The translations under genes were made by a program, and so were the position numbers. Positions 4,017-9,646 of a stretch of 13,996 nt of DNA are shown piece after piece. This stretch comes from a virus: the UHGV virus genome UHGV-0150765; one strand, given 5' to 3'. The notes under the pieces were generated by a model, which searched no databases, had not been told where the DNA came from, and saw nothing but the letters and a program-made list of their open reading frames with translations. Each line of letters opens with the position of its first letter. Positions within the stretch are counted from its first letter, which is position 1.

Positions 4017-4544
4017 TTATGCGAGTACCGTCTTTAACCGTTCTTCAAACTTCCGAAGAGTATTTTGGCGTTCAGCTCTTTGCTTTTTGTAAGTTTCAAT
4101 ACGCTCTGAAATGAGAGTGTATCGTTCATTTACTGATTCTTTCATAAAATCAGGAATTTCACGAGAAGCTTTAATCTCATCAAATTTATCAATAACAGCT
4201 TGCTCTTCAGCAATTAAGTTATCATACATCAAAATATCTTTCTTGATGAACTCAATATCTTCTTGAGTTACACGAGATAATTTAGATGCTTTATCCTTTT
4301 TGTACTGTTCGTTAGTATCACGAGACCAGTGTAATGTACGATTTTTATTCGTATTCTTGTAAATTTCTACAATACCAATCTCATCGATAATAACGATCCA
4401 ATTCCAACGGGATTTGTAAATTTGTCCTCCATTAACAGTGATTTCACCTCCGATTGAGATGTCATTAAAGAACTTGCTTTGTGCTTCAGATTTAAATTTA
4501 CCATCGTTGTAATTTACCAGGTTGAAAATATCTTTAGCGTTCAT
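4017..4544 (-). CDS. hypothetical protein, 175 aa
   Basis: Track ORF 4017..4604 starts at a TTG inside the early-promoter box. First ATG at 4544-4542 has GGAGG SD. The promoter at 4573..4602 would place the mRNA 5' end just upstream. Confidence 0.75.
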   Translation of the reverse strand: MNAKDIFNLVNYNDGKFKSEAQSKFFNDISIGGEITVNGGQIYKSRWNWIVIIDEIGIVEIYKNTNKNRTLHWSRDTNEQYKKDKASKLSRVTQEDIEFIKKDILMYDNLIAEEQAVIDKFDEIKASREIPDFMKESVNERYTLISERIETYKKQRAERQNTLRKFEERLKTVLA

Positions 4545-4572
4545 TTTGTGTTCCTCCGTAGTTGATAGTTGT

Positions 4573-4602
4573 ATAGTACCACAGAGGAACGGTCTTGTAA
4601 AC
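4573..4602 (-). promoter_or_regulatory. T4-type early promoter for 4017..4544, with conserved downstream box
   Basis: Minus strand GTTTAC (4602-4597), 18-nt spacer, GTGGTACTATACAACTATCAAC. The 21-mer at 4561..4581 is identical to 6000..6020. Confidence 0.7.
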
Positions 4603-4604
4603 AA

Positions 4605-4907
4605 CTAAAAGAAACTTCTTTCACAATTTTTTCCACTGAACCAAGCGCTCACTGCTTTCTTAGTCTCAGGAGCGGTGTTATCCATAAACCATTCAAAGGC
4701 AGCCTTTTTATGATTCTGGAGGGCTTCTCGGGCTTTAATCTGCTCACGGTCTATTAACACTAACATATGAGCCTTTCTTGTCACCATGGGCTTCTTATGA
4801 TTTTTTGAATACTCCCAATCATTTGTCCATCGCATCGTTGTTGCGAATTGAAGTACAGCTTCTTTAATCTTAGTTTCGTAAATTTCACGAGCCTTTGAGT
4901 ATAACAT
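4605..4907 (-). CDS. hypothetical protein, about 100 aa, predicted helical
   Basis: ATG at 4907-4905 has GGAGG 5 nt upstream; an in-frame ATG at 4919 lacks an SD. The 3' end runs into the -35 of the downstream early promoter. Confidence 0.65.
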   Translation of the reverse strand: MLYSKAREIYETKIKEAVLQFATTMRWTNDWEYSKNHKKPMVTRKAHMLVLIDREQIKAREALQNHKKAAFEWFMDNTAPETKKAVSAWFSGKNCERSFF

Positions 4908-5008: not shown

Positions 5009-5977
5009 TTATTTCAGAAGAGTAACCTCAGCGATTTCTTCCCAACCGTTTTTGTCGGTCATAATAAAGTCAGCAAGATAAAGTGCAGTACGCAGTGAAA
5101 CATTGCGTAAACGGTTAACATTGACTTTCATCCATGATAATGCTTTATAAGTTTCTTCATCAGAAAGACCGCGTTTTTGCATCATGTCAGTTGAAAGAAT
5201 AACATCTTCAACCCTGACCATAATTTCTTCATTAGTGTGAACACCCAAATCTAAATAAACTGAGCGGGACACTAATGCTTGTAAATGTGGAGCAAGTTTA
5301 GTACCACGGTCTAATTCGCGGTCAATATCAACGTTTGTGATAAAAACAATCGTTCCTTTAAATTCAAACTCACGCTCAATGCCTTTTTCTTCTAAGTAAG
5401 AAGATGCAGTGCTCCAGCAGACTTTACGGGTCTCTCCAGTGTCCAGAGCAGCTTTCAGAAGATTAAGAATGTCCATATCAGAGAAAACATCCACATCATC
5501 AATCAAAAGGACAGAATTCTCTTCACGATTATTCCAGAGCTGTTCATAAAGACCGATACCAGAGATTTTACCATTAATGCTTTTATACTCAATGTATCCA
5601 ATATCATTTGCTTTATTTAAAGCTTTATCTAAAGAATACGTTTTACCAATACCTGCCGCACCAGAGATAATTAATGAACGAATATTTCCGTTAATAATAC
5701 CATTCGTCATCATTCCCATAACATTAAATCTTTTATTAATGCGGGTTTTCATATCTTCATATGATTCTTTAACTTCTTCAACTTTTACACCATCATATGA
5801 AATGTCTGATTTGTAAACCCAAACACCGCGACGTTTACCGTCAATTTCAACAAAAACTTTACCATCTCCTTGTGCATCTACTGGTGCATTATCAGGGAAC
5901 CATTCACCTAAGAACTCAAAAGTTCCAGAGATTTCTTTACCGAAGTAGATACCCTTATTGATAGTTACAGTTTTCAT
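5009..5977 (-). CDS. P-loop NTPase, Walker A GAAGIGKT and Walker B VLLIDDVD, 322 aa
   Basis: Track ORF 5009..6043 starts at a TTG inside the promoter. First ATG at 5977-5975 has GGAG SD. Walker A and B motifs read directly from the translation. N-terminal domain of about 110 aa has no recognised motif. Confidence 0.8.
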   Translation of the reverse strand: MKTVTINKGIYFGKEISGTFEFLGEWFPDNAPVDAQGDGKVFVEIDGKRRGVWVYKSDISYDGVKVEEVKESYEDMKTRINKRFNVMGMMTNGIINGNIRSLIISGAAGIGKTYSLDKALNKANDIGYIEYKSINGKISGIGLYEQLWNNREENSVLLIDDVDVFSDMDILNLLKAALDTGETRKVCWSTASSYLEEKGIEREFEFKGTIVFITNVDIDRELDRGTKLAPHLQALVSRSVYLDLGVHTNEEIMVRVEDVILSTDMMQKRGLSDEETYKALSWMKVNVNRLRNVSLRTALYLADFIMTDKNGWEEIAEVTLLK

Positions 5978-6011
5978 TTTATTCTCCAAATCCGTATCAG
6001 TTGATAGTTGT

Positions 6012-6041
6012 ATAGTACCATAAAGCTTTATGCTTGTAAAC
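6012..6041 (-). promoter_or_regulatory. T4-type early promoter for the P-loop ATPase gene, with conserved downstream box
   Basis: Minus strand GTTTAC (6041-6036), 18-nt spacer, TGGTACTATACAACTATCAAC. Lies directly downstream of the terminator at 6062..6090. Confidence 0.7.
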
Positions 6042-6061
6042 AACTTTGTGAAAAATTTTTG

Positions 6062-6090
6062 AAATAAAAAAGGGAGCCCGAAGGCTCCCT
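6062..6090 (-). terminator. rho-independent terminator with UUCG tetraloop, after the NTase gene
   Basis: Minus-sense RNA: AGGGAGCC-UUCG-GGCUCCCU (8-bp GC-rich stem) followed by UUUUUUAUUU. Begins 2 nt after the stop codon. Confidence 0.85.
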
Positions 6091-6091
6091 A

Positions 6092-7105
6092 TCATTTATA
6101 ATAACTTCGGTGGTTTTCAAGATAGACCTTCTCAAGGAAGTCATCCCAGAAACTCATGTCTACTTTTTGCTGCATACCGTTCTTAGAAGCTTCAGTAGAT
6201 GCTGCTTCTACTTGATCGACCACATCTTCCAAAAACTCTTGAACCGTTTTAAATGGATGTTTACCCAACTTCACGTCGAGAATAAATGGAGCATCTTGGA
6301 GTGGATAAATCAAGTCGCCAGTTTTGTAAATTTCCAATAGTTGAAGTCCACCACGACAAGCATGACTCAGAGCTTTCCAGTCAATACCTTCATTGGCTTC
6401 AGCCTTACGAGCACGTTCACCATATTCAGCATCTAATTTGTTCAGTGACTGCTTAAGCTCAATAAGAGAAAGCGTTGTCTGATATTTACGACCCAACACA
6501 GTGTAGAACGTTTGTGGGCCTGTTTTCTCATGATTATGGAACACCCATTCACAGAATTCGTTTTCTGGAAGACGATGCTTAATATCTTCAACTTTAGTGC
6601 GACGCTGCTTAATAGAACCATCTTCTTGGTAATCAACCCATTGCTCAGGGATTTGATTAACTACTTTCAATACATCACGTAATGCAGCCAAACGAGAACC
6701 CTTGACACCGTATTTAGAAGCTTGCTTACGGACATATCCTAAATATGATTTCATGTTAGTCGTATAAAAACGAGAACGGTTGTCTTGAATAAACTTCCAC
6801 ACATCAGGCAAATCAGATTTAACCACTAGTTCAGGTGGAGTGTGAAGCATATCTAATGCTACAGTTTCACCATCTGCTGCTAATTTAAAGAAATATTTAA
6901 GACTGTATAGTTCATGGTCAATATCATCTTTAGTGTTTTTAGATGATGTGTTGTTAGTGTTTTTACTCATGTGCTCTTTGACATTTCCGATAAGAATATC
7001 GCGAGCAGGAGGAACAAAGATTTCTTTAAAATCTACATCAGATTCTGGGGTAGAAGTTCCATAAAGATGACTACCAAAATAGCTTTTCATTACTGTTTTC
7101 ATCAT
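6092..7105 (-). CDS. pol-beta superfamily nucleotidyltransferase-like protein, 337 aa
   Basis: N-terminal FGSHLYGTSTPESDVDF fits the minimal NTase signature G-S-x3-G-x5-S-D-x-D. A possible third acidic residue lies in VALDMLH. ATG at 7105 overlaps the upstream stop (ATGA). A UUCG terminator follows immediately. Confidence 0.75.
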   Translation of the reverse strand: MMKTVMKSYFGSHLYGTSTPESDVDFKEIFVPPARDILIGNVKEHMSKNTNNTSSKNTKDDIDHELYSLKYFFKLAADGETVALDMLHTPPELVVKSDLPDVWKFIQDNRSRFYTTNMKSYLGYVRKQASKYGVKGSRLAALRDVLKVVNQIPEQWVDYQEDGSIKQRRTKVEDIKHRLPENEFCEWVFHNHEKTGPQTFYTVLGRKYQTTLSLIELKQSLNKLDAEYGERARKAEANEGIDWKALSHACRGGLQLLEIYKTGDLIYPLQDAPFILDVKLGKHPFKTVQEFLEDVVDQVEAASTEASKNGMQQKVDMSFWDDFLEKVYLENHRSYYK

Positions 7106-7575
7106 TCAGCCTTATATTCAATAACAGGACATACTTTAGCTTTACGAGCTTTTAAAAATTCAACGATAATCGATTTCTTGGGTTGAATAGGAGGTAAACC
7201 TTTATACGCCCTATCAATATTTTCTATGTGTAAAGCATAATCCTTTTTCCATTTATAATCTTTATATTTTTCATGCAAATGTGCAGGAATAACAAATGAA
7301 CCAATAATAAGTAAAACAAGCAAAATGGCAAGTATAAATGCTGATGGAATAAGAGTCCATAAACTACCAAAAATAAGCCATTTCTGTATGATTTCTGCGC
7401 AGATGATAGTTAGACCTGCGAGTATAGTACATCCGAAAAAAGAAACGAAAAATGTAGGGATAACAATAGACCAAAAGTATGCACACAGTGTCTTAGGTCG
7501 TTTCCATTCGTCGTTAAACAGTTTGAATAATTTATAGTGCCAAGAGTTTTCATTAATAACCATAATTATAATCAT
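7102..7575 (-). CDS. integral membrane protein, 157 aa, at least two TM segments
   Basis: Hydrophobic stretches FWSIVIPTFFVSFFGCTILAGLTIICAEI and LIPSAFILAILLVLLIIGSFVI. ATGA overlaps with the genes on both sides. A second in-frame ATG at 7563 is an alternative start. Confidence 0.75.
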   Translation of the reverse strand: MIIIMVINENSWHYKLFKLFNDEWKRPKTLCAYFWSIVIPTFFVSFFGCTILAGLTIICAEIIQKWLIFGSLWTLIPSAFILAILLVLLIIGSFVIPAHLHEKYKDYKWKKDYALHIENIDRAYKGLPPIQPKKSIIVEFLKARKAKVCPVIEYKAE

Positions 7576-8093
7576 CCTTTCATTGAAGGTGTAACGTATG
7601 TTAAATACTTAATCATAGCCTCAGCTTCTGATTTTGACAATGAAATTTCTTCACCGTTTTGGCGAATAGAAACAAAATCTGGATGACGGTCACCGCCAGC
7701 CTTTAAAACACACATGTAAGTATCAACTTCGCCTTCAATATTTGAAATGATTGAAGCAGTTCCACATGAATGTGGTTGTTGATAAACTAATACAGCTTTT
7801 CTTCCACCGTTTGACTGTTCATAAACTTTTAACACATCAAACAAATCACTTCTTTTATCAATAGCTAAGATGTTGTTTTCATCTTCAATATTAAATCCTT
7901 CGGATACTTCATAAAGTGTCACCCATAAATCACCAATATCAATAACAGCGTTCACTTTTCCATGACTTTCAAGAGCATTACAAATTTTCTTAATTTCATC
8001 ATAACTCATTTTAATAATATCATCTCCTTGAATAAGGAAGATGTCATTTTTAAATTCAACACGAATTAAACCACTTCCACTTGAAATAAACAT
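7572..8093 (-). CDS. hypothetical protein, 173 aa, paralog of the adjacent 185-aa protein
   Basis: ATG at 8093-8091 with GAGGAAA SD. Shares GFNIE and a C-terminal SxxEAxAxxxYLxxVxPxM motif with 8100..8657. Confidence 0.8.
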   Translation of the reverse strand: MFISSGSGLIRVEFKNDIFLIQGDDIIKMSYDEIKKICNALESHGKVNAVIDIGDLWVTLYEVSEGFNIEDENNILAIDKRSDLFDVLKVYEQSNGGRKAVLVYQQPHSCGTASIISNIEGEVDTYMCVLKAGGDRHPDFVSIRQNGEEISLSKSEAEAMIKYLTYVTPSMKG

Positions 8094-8099
8094 ATTTCC

Positions 8100-8657
8100 T
8101 CACTTTGAAATCATAGTTGGAATGACAGAATCAAGATAAGTCTTTAGCGCAATAGCTTCGTCTTTGGTAAATGTGACAATATGTGATCGAAAATCGTCAA
8201 TTTGGCGAATAGTTAAGACATCTCCATCTTCATAACATTTTGATACGTTTAAAACAGTTTCATCATTCTGACTGCAAGCGTTAGTAATAATAGCATTGCA
8301 ATTTTTAAGCCATTTTAAACTATGTTTTCTTTCATTAGAATAATAAAAATATTTAATCTTATCTATAAAACTATCCCAATGGATAACTGATAAACACATT
8401 GACTCGCTTTCAATATTAAATCCTGGGCATGAAGAATAAAAATGAACTTTATTCTCATCATTGATGCTTACAATTTTATCAGTATAAGAATTTTCAATTT
8501 GGGTTAAATGAATAATTTCGTTAGGCGTAAAATATAGCATATCGTCTTCTTGTGTCAAACGATACATATTATTTACTTTTTCTATAGCCAATTCACCAAA
8601 AAGTGAACTAACTTCTAATACTAATCGTTTCATATTGATTCTCTTCGACTCACTCAC
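8100..8657 (-). CDS. hypothetical protein, 185 aa (or 177 aa from ATG 8633), paralog of 7572..8093
   Basis: GTG at 8657 has AAGGAG 9 nt upstream; an in-frame ATG at 8633 has only a weak SD. C-terminal FTKDEAIALKTYLDSVIPTM matches LSKSEAEAMIKYLTYVTPSM of the neighbour. Confidence 0.75.
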   Translation of the reverse strand: MSESKRINMKRLVLEVSSLFGELAIEKVNNMYRLTQEDDMLYFTPNEIIHLTQIENSYTDKIVSINDENKVHFYSSCPGFNIESESMCLSVIHWDSFIDKIKYFYYSNERKHSLKWLKNCNAIITNACSQNDETVLNVSKCYEDGDVLTIRQIDDFRSHIVTFTKDEAIALKTYLDSVIPTMISK

Positions 8658-8659
8658 AA

Positions 8660-8764
8660 TTACATACTCCTTTGAATAATATCAATAATGTTGTTCACCA
8701 GATTATAAGTAAACATTGGGTAATTATATTGAATCATCACATACACAACAAACAAAACTTTCAT
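8660..8764 (-). CDS. possible 34-aa hydrophobic leader peptide (MKVLFVVYVMIQYNYPMFTYNLVNNIIDIIQRSM)
   Basis: ATG at 8764-8762 has AAGGAG 6 nt upstream and sits just downstream of the early promoter at 8793..8822. Too short for the ORF track. Its stop overlaps the SD of the next gene. Confidence 0.25.
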   Translation of the reverse strand: MKVLFVVYVMIQYNYPMFTYNLVNNIIDIIQRSM

Positions 8765-8792
8765 TCTCTTCTCCTTAACAGTTGACAAGATT

Positions 8793-8822
8793 ACTATAAC
8801 ATAACCTTGCCAACTTGTAAAC
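8793..8822 (-). promoter_or_regulatory. T4-type early promoter for the 185/173/membrane/NTase operon
   Basis: Minus strand GTTTAC (8822-8817), 18-nt spacer, TATAGT (8798-8793), then AAGGAG 17 nt downstream. Confidence 0.6.
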
Positions 8823-8824
8823 CA

Positions 8825-8998
8825 TTAAATGGTGTTTTCAATAAAATTCTGAAGCTTTGTGTGAGCATCAACCATGATTTTCATTTCTTCCTTTGCGAAA
8901 GCTGTACCTCTTTCTCGAGCAGAATACTCATAGTCAGAAACTGCATTAGCATATTCTTCAATTAGCTTCATTAAAAACATCTGCTTTTCAGTTTTCAT
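8825..8998 (-). CDS. hypothetical small protein, 57 aa (MKTEKQMFLMKLIEEYANAVSDYEYSARERGTAFAKEEMKIMVDAHTKLQNFIENTI)
   Basis: Hand-translated; below the 60-aa track cutoff. ATG at 8998-8996 has the same GGTGGAATAATG context as the start at 9367. Fills an otherwise empty 160-bp gap. Confidence 0.45.
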   Translation of the reverse strand: MKTEKQMFLMKLIEEYANAVSDYEYSARERGTAFAKEEMKIMVDAHTKLQNFIENTI

Positions 8999-9182
8999 TA
9001 TTCCACCTAATCATTTCAAGATATTGAACTAACTTAGCTTTGGATTTGTCCAAATCCCTTTTAGCTGCTTCTATACCGTCGTATGAATATCCTTCACAAT
9101 GCTCAACTGCTAATTGATATGAATCTATTTCAATATCATGCGCTAATTTAATGATTTTTTCAAACTGTTCGCGTGTTAGCAT
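8988..9182 (-). CDS. hypothetical small protein, 64 aa
   Basis: ATG at 9182-9180. Tightly packed in a run of small early ORFs. Predicted helical. Confidence 0.6.
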   Translation of the reverse strand: MLTREQFEKIIKLAHDIEIDSYQLAVEHCEGYSYDGIEAAKRDLDKSKAKLVQYLEMIRWNNEN

Positions 9183-9184
9183 AC

Positions 9185-9367
9185 TTACACTCTCGTATTA
9201 TGATCGATAATTTCATCAAGAAACATATCTAACGCTTCTACAGCATTATCAACTTTAGCTTCAAATTCTTCAATACCTGATAAGGCAAAGTTAATGCGTT
9301 CCTCATCTGCTTTACGAATTAAAGCTACCAATTCCTTAATTTTATCCGCTTGTTCGATACTAATCAT
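9185..9367 (-). CDS. hypothetical small protein, 60 aa
   Basis: Track ORF starts at GTG 9403. The ATG at 9367-9365 has a GGTGG SD and shares one base with the upstream stop (TAATG), so that start is preferred. Confidence 0.6.
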   Translation of the reverse strand: MISIEQADKIKELVALIRKADEERINFALSGIEEFEAKVDNAVEALDMFLDEIIDHNTRV

Positions 9368-9555
9368 TATTCCACCACATATGAAAGAGAGAATATTGCA
9401 CACGCCATGTGAGTTGCAACTTCATCACACATATTATAACGTTTCTTAAGAAGTTCTACAAGTTCTTCACTAGTAACTTCATCCATGTCGACGAAAAAAT
9501 CACCATTAATGATGACGTAGATATTTCCTTCTTGATTAAGTGCTTCAATTTTCAT
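9367..9555 (-). CDS. hypothetical small protein, 62 aa, first gene after the early promoter
   Basis: ATG at 9555-9553 with GAGGAG SD 6 nt upstream. Promoter at 9584..9613. Confidence 0.65.
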
Positions 9556-9583
9556 GATGTTCTCCTCTTTATCCGATAGTTGT

Positions 9584-9613
9584 ATAGTACCACAGCTTAA
9601 ACGGAAAGTAAAC
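9584..9613 (-). promoter_or_regulatory. T4-type early promoter for the small-ORF run 9555..8825, with conserved downstream box
   Basis: Minus strand GTTTAC (9613-9608), 18-nt spacer, GTGGTACTATACAACTATC. Lies directly downstream of the terminator at 9622..9646. Confidence 0.7.
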
Positions 9614-9621
9614 CGGTAAAA

Positions 9622-9646
9622 TGAAAAAAGTCTCCCGAAGGAGACT
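9622..9646 (-). terminator. rho-independent terminator with UUCG tetraloop, after the rI.-1-like gene
   Basis: Minus-sense RNA: AGUCUCC-UUCG-GGAGACU (7-bp stem) followed by UUUUUUCA. Begins 5 nt after the stop codon. Confidence 0.8.

Follow-up and report, generated by a model that had tools for sequence, protein, structure and literature searches.

Gene content of the block

The window analysed here, a 13,996-nt stretch of the virus genome UHGV-0150765, carries on its minus strand, between positions 6062 and 8822, a block of genes encoding two paralogous proteins of the y05I family, a small membrane protein and the nucleotidyltransferase NrdC.11. A 3.1-kb query matched 761 phage records, with the top match, at 97% identity, to Tequatrovirus (T4-like) genomes. 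Going by these matches, the window is a segment of the Tequatrovirus nrdC-tk early region, in which the block is flanked by rI.-1, rI, rI.1 and tk upstream and by nrdC.10 to nrdC.4 downstream.

An initial annotation, prepared from the nucleotide sequence without database searches, had described a self-contained operon of four genes here, and we found the four minus-strand open reading frames (ORFs) at the same positions. In the direction of transcription these encode y05I-family paralog 1 (8100-8657; the T4 MobD.1 ortholog, with 185 aa from a GTG start or 177 aa from the ATG at 8633), y05I-family paralog 2 (7572-8093; RB32ORF097c type, 173 aa), a membrane protein of the RB32ORF096c/RB69ORF104c family (7102-7575; 157 aa, with two to three predicted transmembrane (TM) segments), and NrdC.11, a Pol-beta-type nucleotidyltransferase (NTase) of the RlaP family (PF10127; 6092-7105; 337 aa). 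The last three genes are linked by stop/start overlaps, as had been claimed, with ATGA at both the 173-aa/157-aa and the 157-aa/337-aa gene junctions, and a 6-nt spacer with GAGG separates the 185-aa and 173-aa genes. The unit is not confined to these four genes, since the mobD.2 ortholog (8660-8764, minus strand; 34 aa), which the initial annotation omitted, belongs to it as the first cistron after the promoter-like site at 8793-8822. An AAGGAG ribosome-binding site (RBS) lies 6 nt 5′ of its ATG at 8764, and its product is 88% identical to T4 MobD.2 and matches phrog_3515 (E=3.7e-22).

All four genes are T-even ORFs that have already been catalogued and for which Pfam or PHROG families exist, and the block is ordinary phage accessory gene content. 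The view of these genes as accessory rather than housekeeping was supported; the statement that none of them has an assignable function was not, because the NTase and both paralogs fall in named Pfam families.

Distribution and synteny

We evaluated the co-occurrence of the genes using tblastn record counts in a phage collection, a uniform panel of 16 loci, and 11 further context loci. The record counts were nested: the NTase was found in 1518 records, from Straboviridae and beyond, the membrane protein in 934, the MobD.1-type paralog in 730, and the 173-aa paralog in 480, almost all of them Tequatrovirus. T4 itself encodes MobD.1, the HNH homing endonuclease mobD and NrdC.11, without the membrane gene or the second paralog; the mobD insertion site is nrdC.11/mobD.1 (PMC2988022), and mobD was present at ≥95% identity in 47 records. 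In T2 (locus L015, 2840-4381) frameshifts have turned the two paralogs and the membrane gene into pseudogenes split over different reading frames, and NrdC.11 is intact and 99% identical.

The arrangement of the genes in other phages was also variable. The order in RB69 is one paralog, the membrane gene, then the NTase, and in VR26 mobD lies between the last two. One unrelated gene separates the membrane gene from the NTase in phiR1-RT and AM101, three do so in KPV15 and EnC07, and in Serratia phage WSPA there are four genes between them, including a nicotinamide mononucleotide adenylyltransferase gene. KVP40, Aeromonas phage avDM14, Slopekvirus Roth26, Krischvirus GoldenSnicker and Rheinheimera phage Barba31A carry the NTase, with no membrane or y05I gene detected nearby. 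Overall, adjacency of the membrane and NTase genes was broken in T4, VR26, KPV15, EnC07, phiR1-RT, WSPA, AM101 and a metagenomic T4-like contig (L025), and the NTase stood alone in six other loci. The initial annotation had named independent occurrence of the genes in related phages as evidence against a co-functional module, and this independence is what we observed, with two of the four genes absent from T4, decay of the three other genes beside an intact NTase in T2, and gaps of variable size elsewhere.

At the start of the NTase gene, the ATGA overlap is retained with whichever gene lies upstream, be it the membrane protein gene, a gene of an unrelated soluble 135-141-aa family, or others. 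Because the overlap is kept across unrelated upstream genes, we attribute it to generic T4-style packing and ruled it out as a sign of coupling between the membrane protein and the NTase. Co-translation of these two proteins had been taken to indicate signalling; this argument falls away, given that the overlap is independent of the upstream gene and that no PADLOC or CD-NTase match was found.

The position of the block is syntenic in Tevenvirinae, between rI/mobD.x and nrdC.10, and the lineage distribution of NrdC.10 approximates that of the membrane gene, which is the pattern that vertical synteny would produce. The block contains no gene for an endonuclease, an integrase or a transposase. 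The earlier description of the block as a mobile accessory unit is therefore not upheld, as the locus is syntenic across Straboviridae and the mobile element known at this site is mobD, which is absent from the window. Judged by these distributions, the four genes are not one self-contained signalling or mobile module.

The y05I paralogs and the membrane protein

The paralogy of the 185-aa and 173-aa proteins was confirmed, with 30% identity between them (E=1e-10) and with both y05I domains present in each. The 185-aa protein matched the Pfam families T4_y05I_N and T4_y05I_C with 129.5 bits (8.3e-38) and 75.9 bits (3.3e-21), and the 173-aa protein with 120 bits (7.4e-35) and 79.6 bits (2.2e-22), well above the respective cut-offs of 24.9 and 27 bits. 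The 185-aa protein is 82% identical to T4 MobD.1 (Y05I). The 173-aa protein has no match in T4, and from its near-restriction to one genus it is a Tequatrovirus-specific tandem duplicate. The family as a whole is very small, with 34 clusters recovered from 5.8 billion proteins by word-indexed searching and 25 from 1.84 billion representatives when a profile was searched exhaustively. These include full-length proteins of 173-184 aa and C-domain-only proteins (y05I_C) of 65-87 aa, with the common C-terminal motif TKxEAxALxxYLxxVIPxM.

Alignment of the family (alignment A2) also revealed two irregular patterns. One protein (P0141) is a natural chimera with an N-terminal half of MobD.1 type and a C-terminal half of the type of the 173-aa paralog. 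The MobD.1 proteins of Mosigvirus (P0145-P0151) are ~45-50% identical to the window protein overall, with the C-terminal ~32 aa almost identical. As aligned, both patterns are the product of mosaic recombination beside the mobD insertion site.

The 157-aa protein had been described as a multi-TM membrane protein, and its hydropathy profile agrees, with long hydrophobic stretches at residues ~29-64 and 66-102 that correspond to two to three predicted TM segments and are followed by a basic C-terminal tail. It matches the PHROG family annotated as 'membrane protein' (phrog_944, E=2.1e-49). Across the family (alignment A5), an N-terminal motif (MxINxNSWHYK..LCxYFWK) and a C-terminal motif (YLKARKxKxCPxIEYK), both assigned to the cytoplasm, are conserved, and variable hydrophobic segments and a basic linker lie between them. 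A profile of this family against PDB yielded no chain with E<0.3.

Among the 10 panel loci with a membrane gene, a y05I or y05I_C gene lay directly upstream of it in eight. The same adjacency was seen in each of the six additional loci, representing four distinct contexts, that were found via divergent y05I proteins, where the downstream neighbours matched the hidden Markov model of the membrane family with E=1e-28 to 1e-46. In the metagenomic contig L025 (1524-4201) the gene order is RlaP, a 78-aa ORF, a 228-aa ORF, y05I_C and the membrane protein gene; here the pair follows the RlaP gene, and has thus been preserved despite a changed location with respect to the NTase. Joint decay of the y05I genes and the membrane gene is seen in T2, where the NTase is spared. 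In the loci compared, what is conserved in the region is the linkage of the membrane gene to a y05I or y05I_C gene upstream of it, and not its linkage to the NTase.

NrdC.11 as a member of the RlaP family

The assignment of the 337-aa protein as a Pol-beta NTase held up. It is 98% identical to T4 NrdC.11, scores 44.7 bits with Pfam RlaP (PF10127; cut-off 23 bits, E=1.7e-11), and matches the PHROG family annotated as 'nucleotidyltransferase' (phrog_388, E=1.3e-136). The RlaP profile was matched by 60 of 60 diverse NrdC.11 relatives, down to 26% identity. In the alignment of these 60 sequences the catalytic signature GS/DxD/D (G11, S12, D23, D25 and D85) is invariant, and in an alignment spanning 12 genera G11, S12, D23 and D25 are invariant and D85 nearly so.

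An AlphaFold2 model of NrdC.11 (predicted local distance difference test score (pLDDT) 84) comprises an NTase domain and a C-terminal helical domain, the structural matches of which include HEPN-domain proteins. The solved structural neighbours of the model are HalB (the best), KNTase/ANT(4'), LinB and AAD(9). Sequence and profile searches of PDB with the NTase gave nothing meaningful, in a searched set that evidently lacked the PfRlaP structure. None of the PADLOC defence profiles, CD-NTases included, was matched by any of the proteins, and NCBIfam gave only a sub-threshold match to MntA (13 bits against a cut-off of 60).

NrdC.11-like genes are also found in phages that are not T4-like, and their neighbourhoods there are informative. 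In four of four such phages (loci L014, L017, L018 and L019/L020), the NrdC.11-like gene (~30% identity, all with the Pfam RlaP match) lies 0-3 genes from a gene for a CCA-adding-type tRNA NTase (PF01743). This is the case in Rheinheimera phage Barba31A; in Vibrio phage 11895-B1, where an AAA_33 P-loop kinase and an HD protein are also nearby; in a 142-kb metagenomic phage; and in a 109-kb metagenomic phage, where the two genes directly adjoin and an RNA ligase is encoded ~7.5 kb downstream. No membrane partner was found beside the NrdC.11-like gene in these four loci. The proximity to CCA-adding enzymes supports a role in tRNA or RNA 3′-end repair.

Such a role is in keeping with published work on the family. 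NrdC.11 was recognised in 2006 as a conserved COG3541 NTase (PMC1524935). RlaP enzymes from Pseudomonas add one to two nucleoside monophosphates (NMPs) to the 3′-OH of RNA, with a preference for damaged RNA, and among cellular macromolecules the characterised RlaPs act on RNA only (PMC12776372). The proposal is that these enzymes counteract ribotoxins that excise nucleotides ('smart' ribotoxins, RloC among them) by putting the lost nucleotides back before ligation, and T4 NrdC.11 has been named as a member of the family, in cluster 5 of a sequence similarity network (SSN) in which the characterised Pseudomonas enzymes form cluster 1a (PMC12776372). In jumbo phages the distribution of RlaP mirrors that of RNA ligase (PMC7824862). 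The block had been likened to signalling, effector or anti-defence modules; anti-defence is a fair description of the NTase, as RlaP is proposed to repair ribotoxin-cut RNA (PMC12776372, PMC7824862), and signalling found no support. A viable genome-reduced T4 has lost nrdC.11-mobD.3 (PMC9825161), so the region is dispensable in the laboratory.

Transcription signals and neighbouring genes

A conserved T4-early-type promoter-like element lies at 8793-8822 on the minus strand, with a GTTTACA -35 element, a 17-nt spacer with TG, and a TATAGT -10 element. This site (8821-8793) scores 10/12 with TG and is the same in T4, T2 and HP3 except for two to three spacer bases. At the other end of the block, an intrinsic terminator at 6062-6090 on the minus strand (hairpin 6071-6090) combines an 8-bp GC-rich stem and a UUCG tetraloop with a U-tract (free energy -16.2 kcal/mol); its sequence is unchanged in T4 and HP3. 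The early promoter and the terminator described in the initial annotation are thus both seen at the sequence level and conserved in relatives, with an early-type promoter upstream and an intrinsic terminator downstream of the genes. Within the window, seven GTTTAC-N20-24-TANNNT sites were seen against 0.98 expected, and 19 terminator-like sites against 6.2 expected.

Some of these signals belong to a repeat family (D1) with three copies of ~71 nt (minus strand GTTTAC..TGGTACTATACAACTATC..RBS) at 4540-4610, 5979-6049 and 9551-9621, which precede nrdC.8, nrdC.10 and mobD.5, respectively; two of the three stand directly after UUCG-loop terminators. The copy at 5979-6049 (minus strand) directly follows the 6071-6090 terminator and would serve as the promoter cassette of the nrdC.10 unit. 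Upstream of the block, a minus-strand element at 9580-9646 consists of a terminator after rI.-1 (9629-9646, free energy -10.8 kcal/mol) followed by the D1 early promoter cassette GTTTAC..TGGTACTATACAACTATC. The idea that reusable cassettes bracket the block is therefore correct for its downstream end, where the cassette belongs to D1; the upstream D1 partner is the copy at 9551-9621, not the site at 8793-8822. The interval between these two D1 cassettes extends from mobD.5 to nrdC.11 (~9621 to 6071) and holds nine or ten genes.

No terminator-like site was found on the minus strand from 9629 to 6090, the nearest upstream terminator being that at 9629-9646. As no terminator lies upstream of the 8821 promoter, read-through into the block from the mobD.5 promoter (~9612) is probable, and the small ORFs mobD.2a, mobD.3, mobD.4 and mobD.5 (8825-9555, minus strand; 84-100% identity to their T4 orthologs) are probably co-transcribed into it. 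This also speaks against the self-contained nature of the operon, for which a terminator upstream is missing. The 8821 promoter would then be an additional internal promoter, of a sequence type different from D1. Transcription from all of these signals is a prediction from their nucleotide sequence. The best match to the sigma-70 consensus in the window (TTGACA-16-TATATT with TG, 11/12; 8531-8558, minus strand) lies inside the 185-aa y05I ORF; we considered it as an internal promoter and rejected it, as it overlaps the conserved LTQEDD codons of the y05I N-domain and is probably a coding coincidence.

Several further observations concern the neighbouring genes. The product of mobD.2a (8825-8998) is 57 aa long in the window, T2 and HP3, compared with 38 aa in the T4 annotation; the tblastn match to T4 mobD.2a is in two pieces, which suggests a frameshift in T4. 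For NrdC.10, the mechanically called 344-aa ORF (5009-6043, TTG start) engulfs its own promoter at 6040-6012, and the true start is probably an ATG near 5977 (MKTVTINKG...), giving ~322 aa as in T4; the protein has P-loop matches of AAA/STAND-like type, all of them weak. Some Tequatrovirus genomes carry an extra ORF of ~480 bp ('T2_95', 161 aa) between nrdC.11 and nrdC.10, at the terminator/promoter junction (5519-6004 in the T2 locus L015, ~6044-6091 in window terms), which gives rise to two-piece matches in DNA searches.

Two proposed units and alternative explanations

We consider it likely that the block is a vertically inherited T-even nrdC-tk early accessory stretch in which two independent units share transcription signals. 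In the first unit, NrdC.11 would act, by homology, as a template-independent RNA 3′-end nucleotidyltransferase that adds one to two NMPs onto the 3′-OH of damaged RNA. Together with the phage polynucleotide kinase/phosphatase and RNA ligases, it would restore tRNAs that RloC or other anticodon nucleases of the host have cut and trimmed, and would thus be a counter-defence enzyme. The second unit would be a separate accessory pair consisting of the y05I-domain protein, here as a tandem duplicate, and the small membrane protein. Its most likely role would be a dispensable early accessory function directed at the host or the membrane, in which the soluble y05I protein may work with, or be regulated by, the membrane protein. 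Transcription would start at the 8821 early promoter, probably with additional read-through from the mobD.5 promoter at ~9612, and end at the UUCG terminator at 6071-6090. A more specific version of this account strikes us as somewhat doubtful. It holds that the y05I or y05I_C gene and the membrane gene form an unrecognised conserved two-gene early T-even module. Its membrane-anchored member might sequester or activate a small regulator that binds DNA or RNA, or the module might serve in exclusion or anti-defence; it would have undergone duplication in Tequatrovirus and repeated loss among laboratory phages. Separately, NrdC.11 would fill a gap in T4 by replacing, ahead of ligation by Pnkp/Rnl1, the nucleotides that RloC-type anticodon nucleases excise.

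Several points weigh against the two-unit account. What points to an interaction between the y05I and membrane proteins, and to the function proposed for them, is gene adjacency, and the model of the 185-aa paralog (from an 18-sequence alignment; pLDDT 47) was too poor for a fold search. The enzymatic activity and tRNA-repair role put forward for NrdC.11 come from homology and gene context, and its Pfam RlaP match spans residues 7-135, that is, the N-terminal NTase half only. No RNA ligase or kinase was found within the 14-kb window; T4-type phages encode Pnkp, Rnl1 and Rnl2 elsewhere in the genome, and the link to these repair enzymes is a genome-level one drawn from prior knowledge of T4. 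Lastly, in the intact Tequatrovirus and Mosigvirus loci that we examined (window, HP3 and RB69), the membrane and NTase genes were always adjacent and overlapping.

This last observation, together with the finding that ~85% of Tequatrovirus records with the NTase also have the membrane gene, is the basis for an explanation in which genes of separate origin became coupled in Tequatrovirus and Mosigvirus only, such that the membrane protein acts on NrdC.11 by recruitment or regulation, for instance to localise RNA repair at the membrane. Vertical synteny explains the same adjacency, however, and T4 and ~47 close relatives lack the membrane gene, T2 has a frameshifted membrane gene beside an intact NTase, and VR26 has mobD inserted between the two genes, so we regard this coupling as quite improbable. 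Still less credible is a single four-gene signalling or effector module, in which a nucleotide or oligonucleotide signal made by the NTase would control the membrane protein in a manner resembling the bacterial Hailong system, or in which the block would be a phage decoy against such a system, with the paralogs as regulators. The distribution data have already largely refuted it: adjacency of the membrane and NTase genes fails outside two genera, the T4 NTase occurs without a membrane gene, the decay in T2 spares the NTase, and an identical ATGA overlap joins the NTase to unrelated genes in other genera. In addition, the NTase belongs by sequence to the RlaP family, no PADLOC match was found, and the membrane family profile had no PDB match, which covers HalA if its solved structure was in the searched set.

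A different question is whether NrdC.11 is an RNA-repair enzyme at all, as it could instead transfer nucleotides to proteins, small molecules or DNA ends, in the manner of MNT antitoxins, aminoglycoside NTases or HalB. Its structural neighbours (HalB, KNTase/ANT(4'), LinB and AAD(9)), the resemblance of its C-terminal domain to HEPN/KNTase_C bundles, the confinement of the RlaP match to the NTase core, and its placement in SSN cluster 5 rather than in cluster 1a with the characterised Pseudomonas enzymes (PMC12776372) would all be compatible with such a substrate. Nonetheless, the RlaP assignment holds for all 60 diverse members, distant relatives have tRNA-centred neighbourhoods (CCA-adding enzyme, kinase, HD protein and RNA ligase), and the only cellular macromolecule on which characterised RlaPs act is RNA (PMC12776372). 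We therefore think a non-RNA substrate unlikely, though less so than either form of coupling to the membrane protein.

Repair of trimmed tRNA ends by NrdC.11, if real, would complete the classic counter-defence in which T4 mends tRNAs with Pnkp and Rnl1, and would offer an explanation of how T-even phages might withstand anticodon nucleases that excise nucleotides, RloC being one. The repair idea for the RlaP family has already been published, and the window adds no new principle to it. The new points are modest, namely the pairing of y05I with the membrane protein and the location of NrdC.11-like genes of unrelated phages near those for CCA-adding enzymes. They offer genetics a cleaner target, with the y05I-membrane pair taken apart from the NTase.

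Comparison with known systems

The closest known counterparts of the NTase are T4 NrdC.11, with which it shares 98% identity, and the RlaP enzymes (PF10127, COG3541) of P. fluorescens and P. aeruginosa, with which it shares the RlaP match and the GS..DxD..D signature. The crystal structure of PfRlaP has an N-terminal NTase domain and a C-terminal helical domain that form a cleft, and the architecture of the window NrdC.11, with an NTase and a helical domain in the model, may be of this kind. The Pseudomonas RlaPs are nevertheless only distant kin, given the different SSN cluster (PMC12776372) and the restriction of the Pfam match to the N-terminal half; moreover, the nrdC.11 gene of the window is not beside an RNA ligase or RtcB gene.

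Both window paralogs share the two y05I domains with T4 MobD.1 (Y05I), the 185-aa copy being its ortholog at 82% identity. The window carries two tandem copies compared with one in T4, RB69 and VR26, and in other genera the C-domain alone is present, as a protein of 67-87 aa. Pfam labels the family 'y05I-like putative transcription factor'. The membrane protein shares the terminal motifs of RB32ORF096c/RB69ORF104c and belongs to their family (phrog_944), the gene for which is lacking in T4 and frameshifted in T2. The free-standing homing-endonuclease cassette of T4 mobD occupies the same genomic site (PMC2988022), but the window is uninterrupted there, the place of T4 mobD being taken by the membrane gene and the second y05I paralog.

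The resemblance to Hailong, which consists of the HalA channel and the HalB NTase, is one of surface: a membrane protein is encoded together with a Pol-beta NTase, and HalB is the best solved structural neighbour of that NTase. However, the window NTase belongs to the RlaP sequence family, and the membrane protein is unrelated to HalA, without a PDB match and far simpler at 157 aa with two to three TM segments. In addition, the genes for the membrane protein and the NTase have not been kept as a pair, and they are encoded by a phage rather than by its host.

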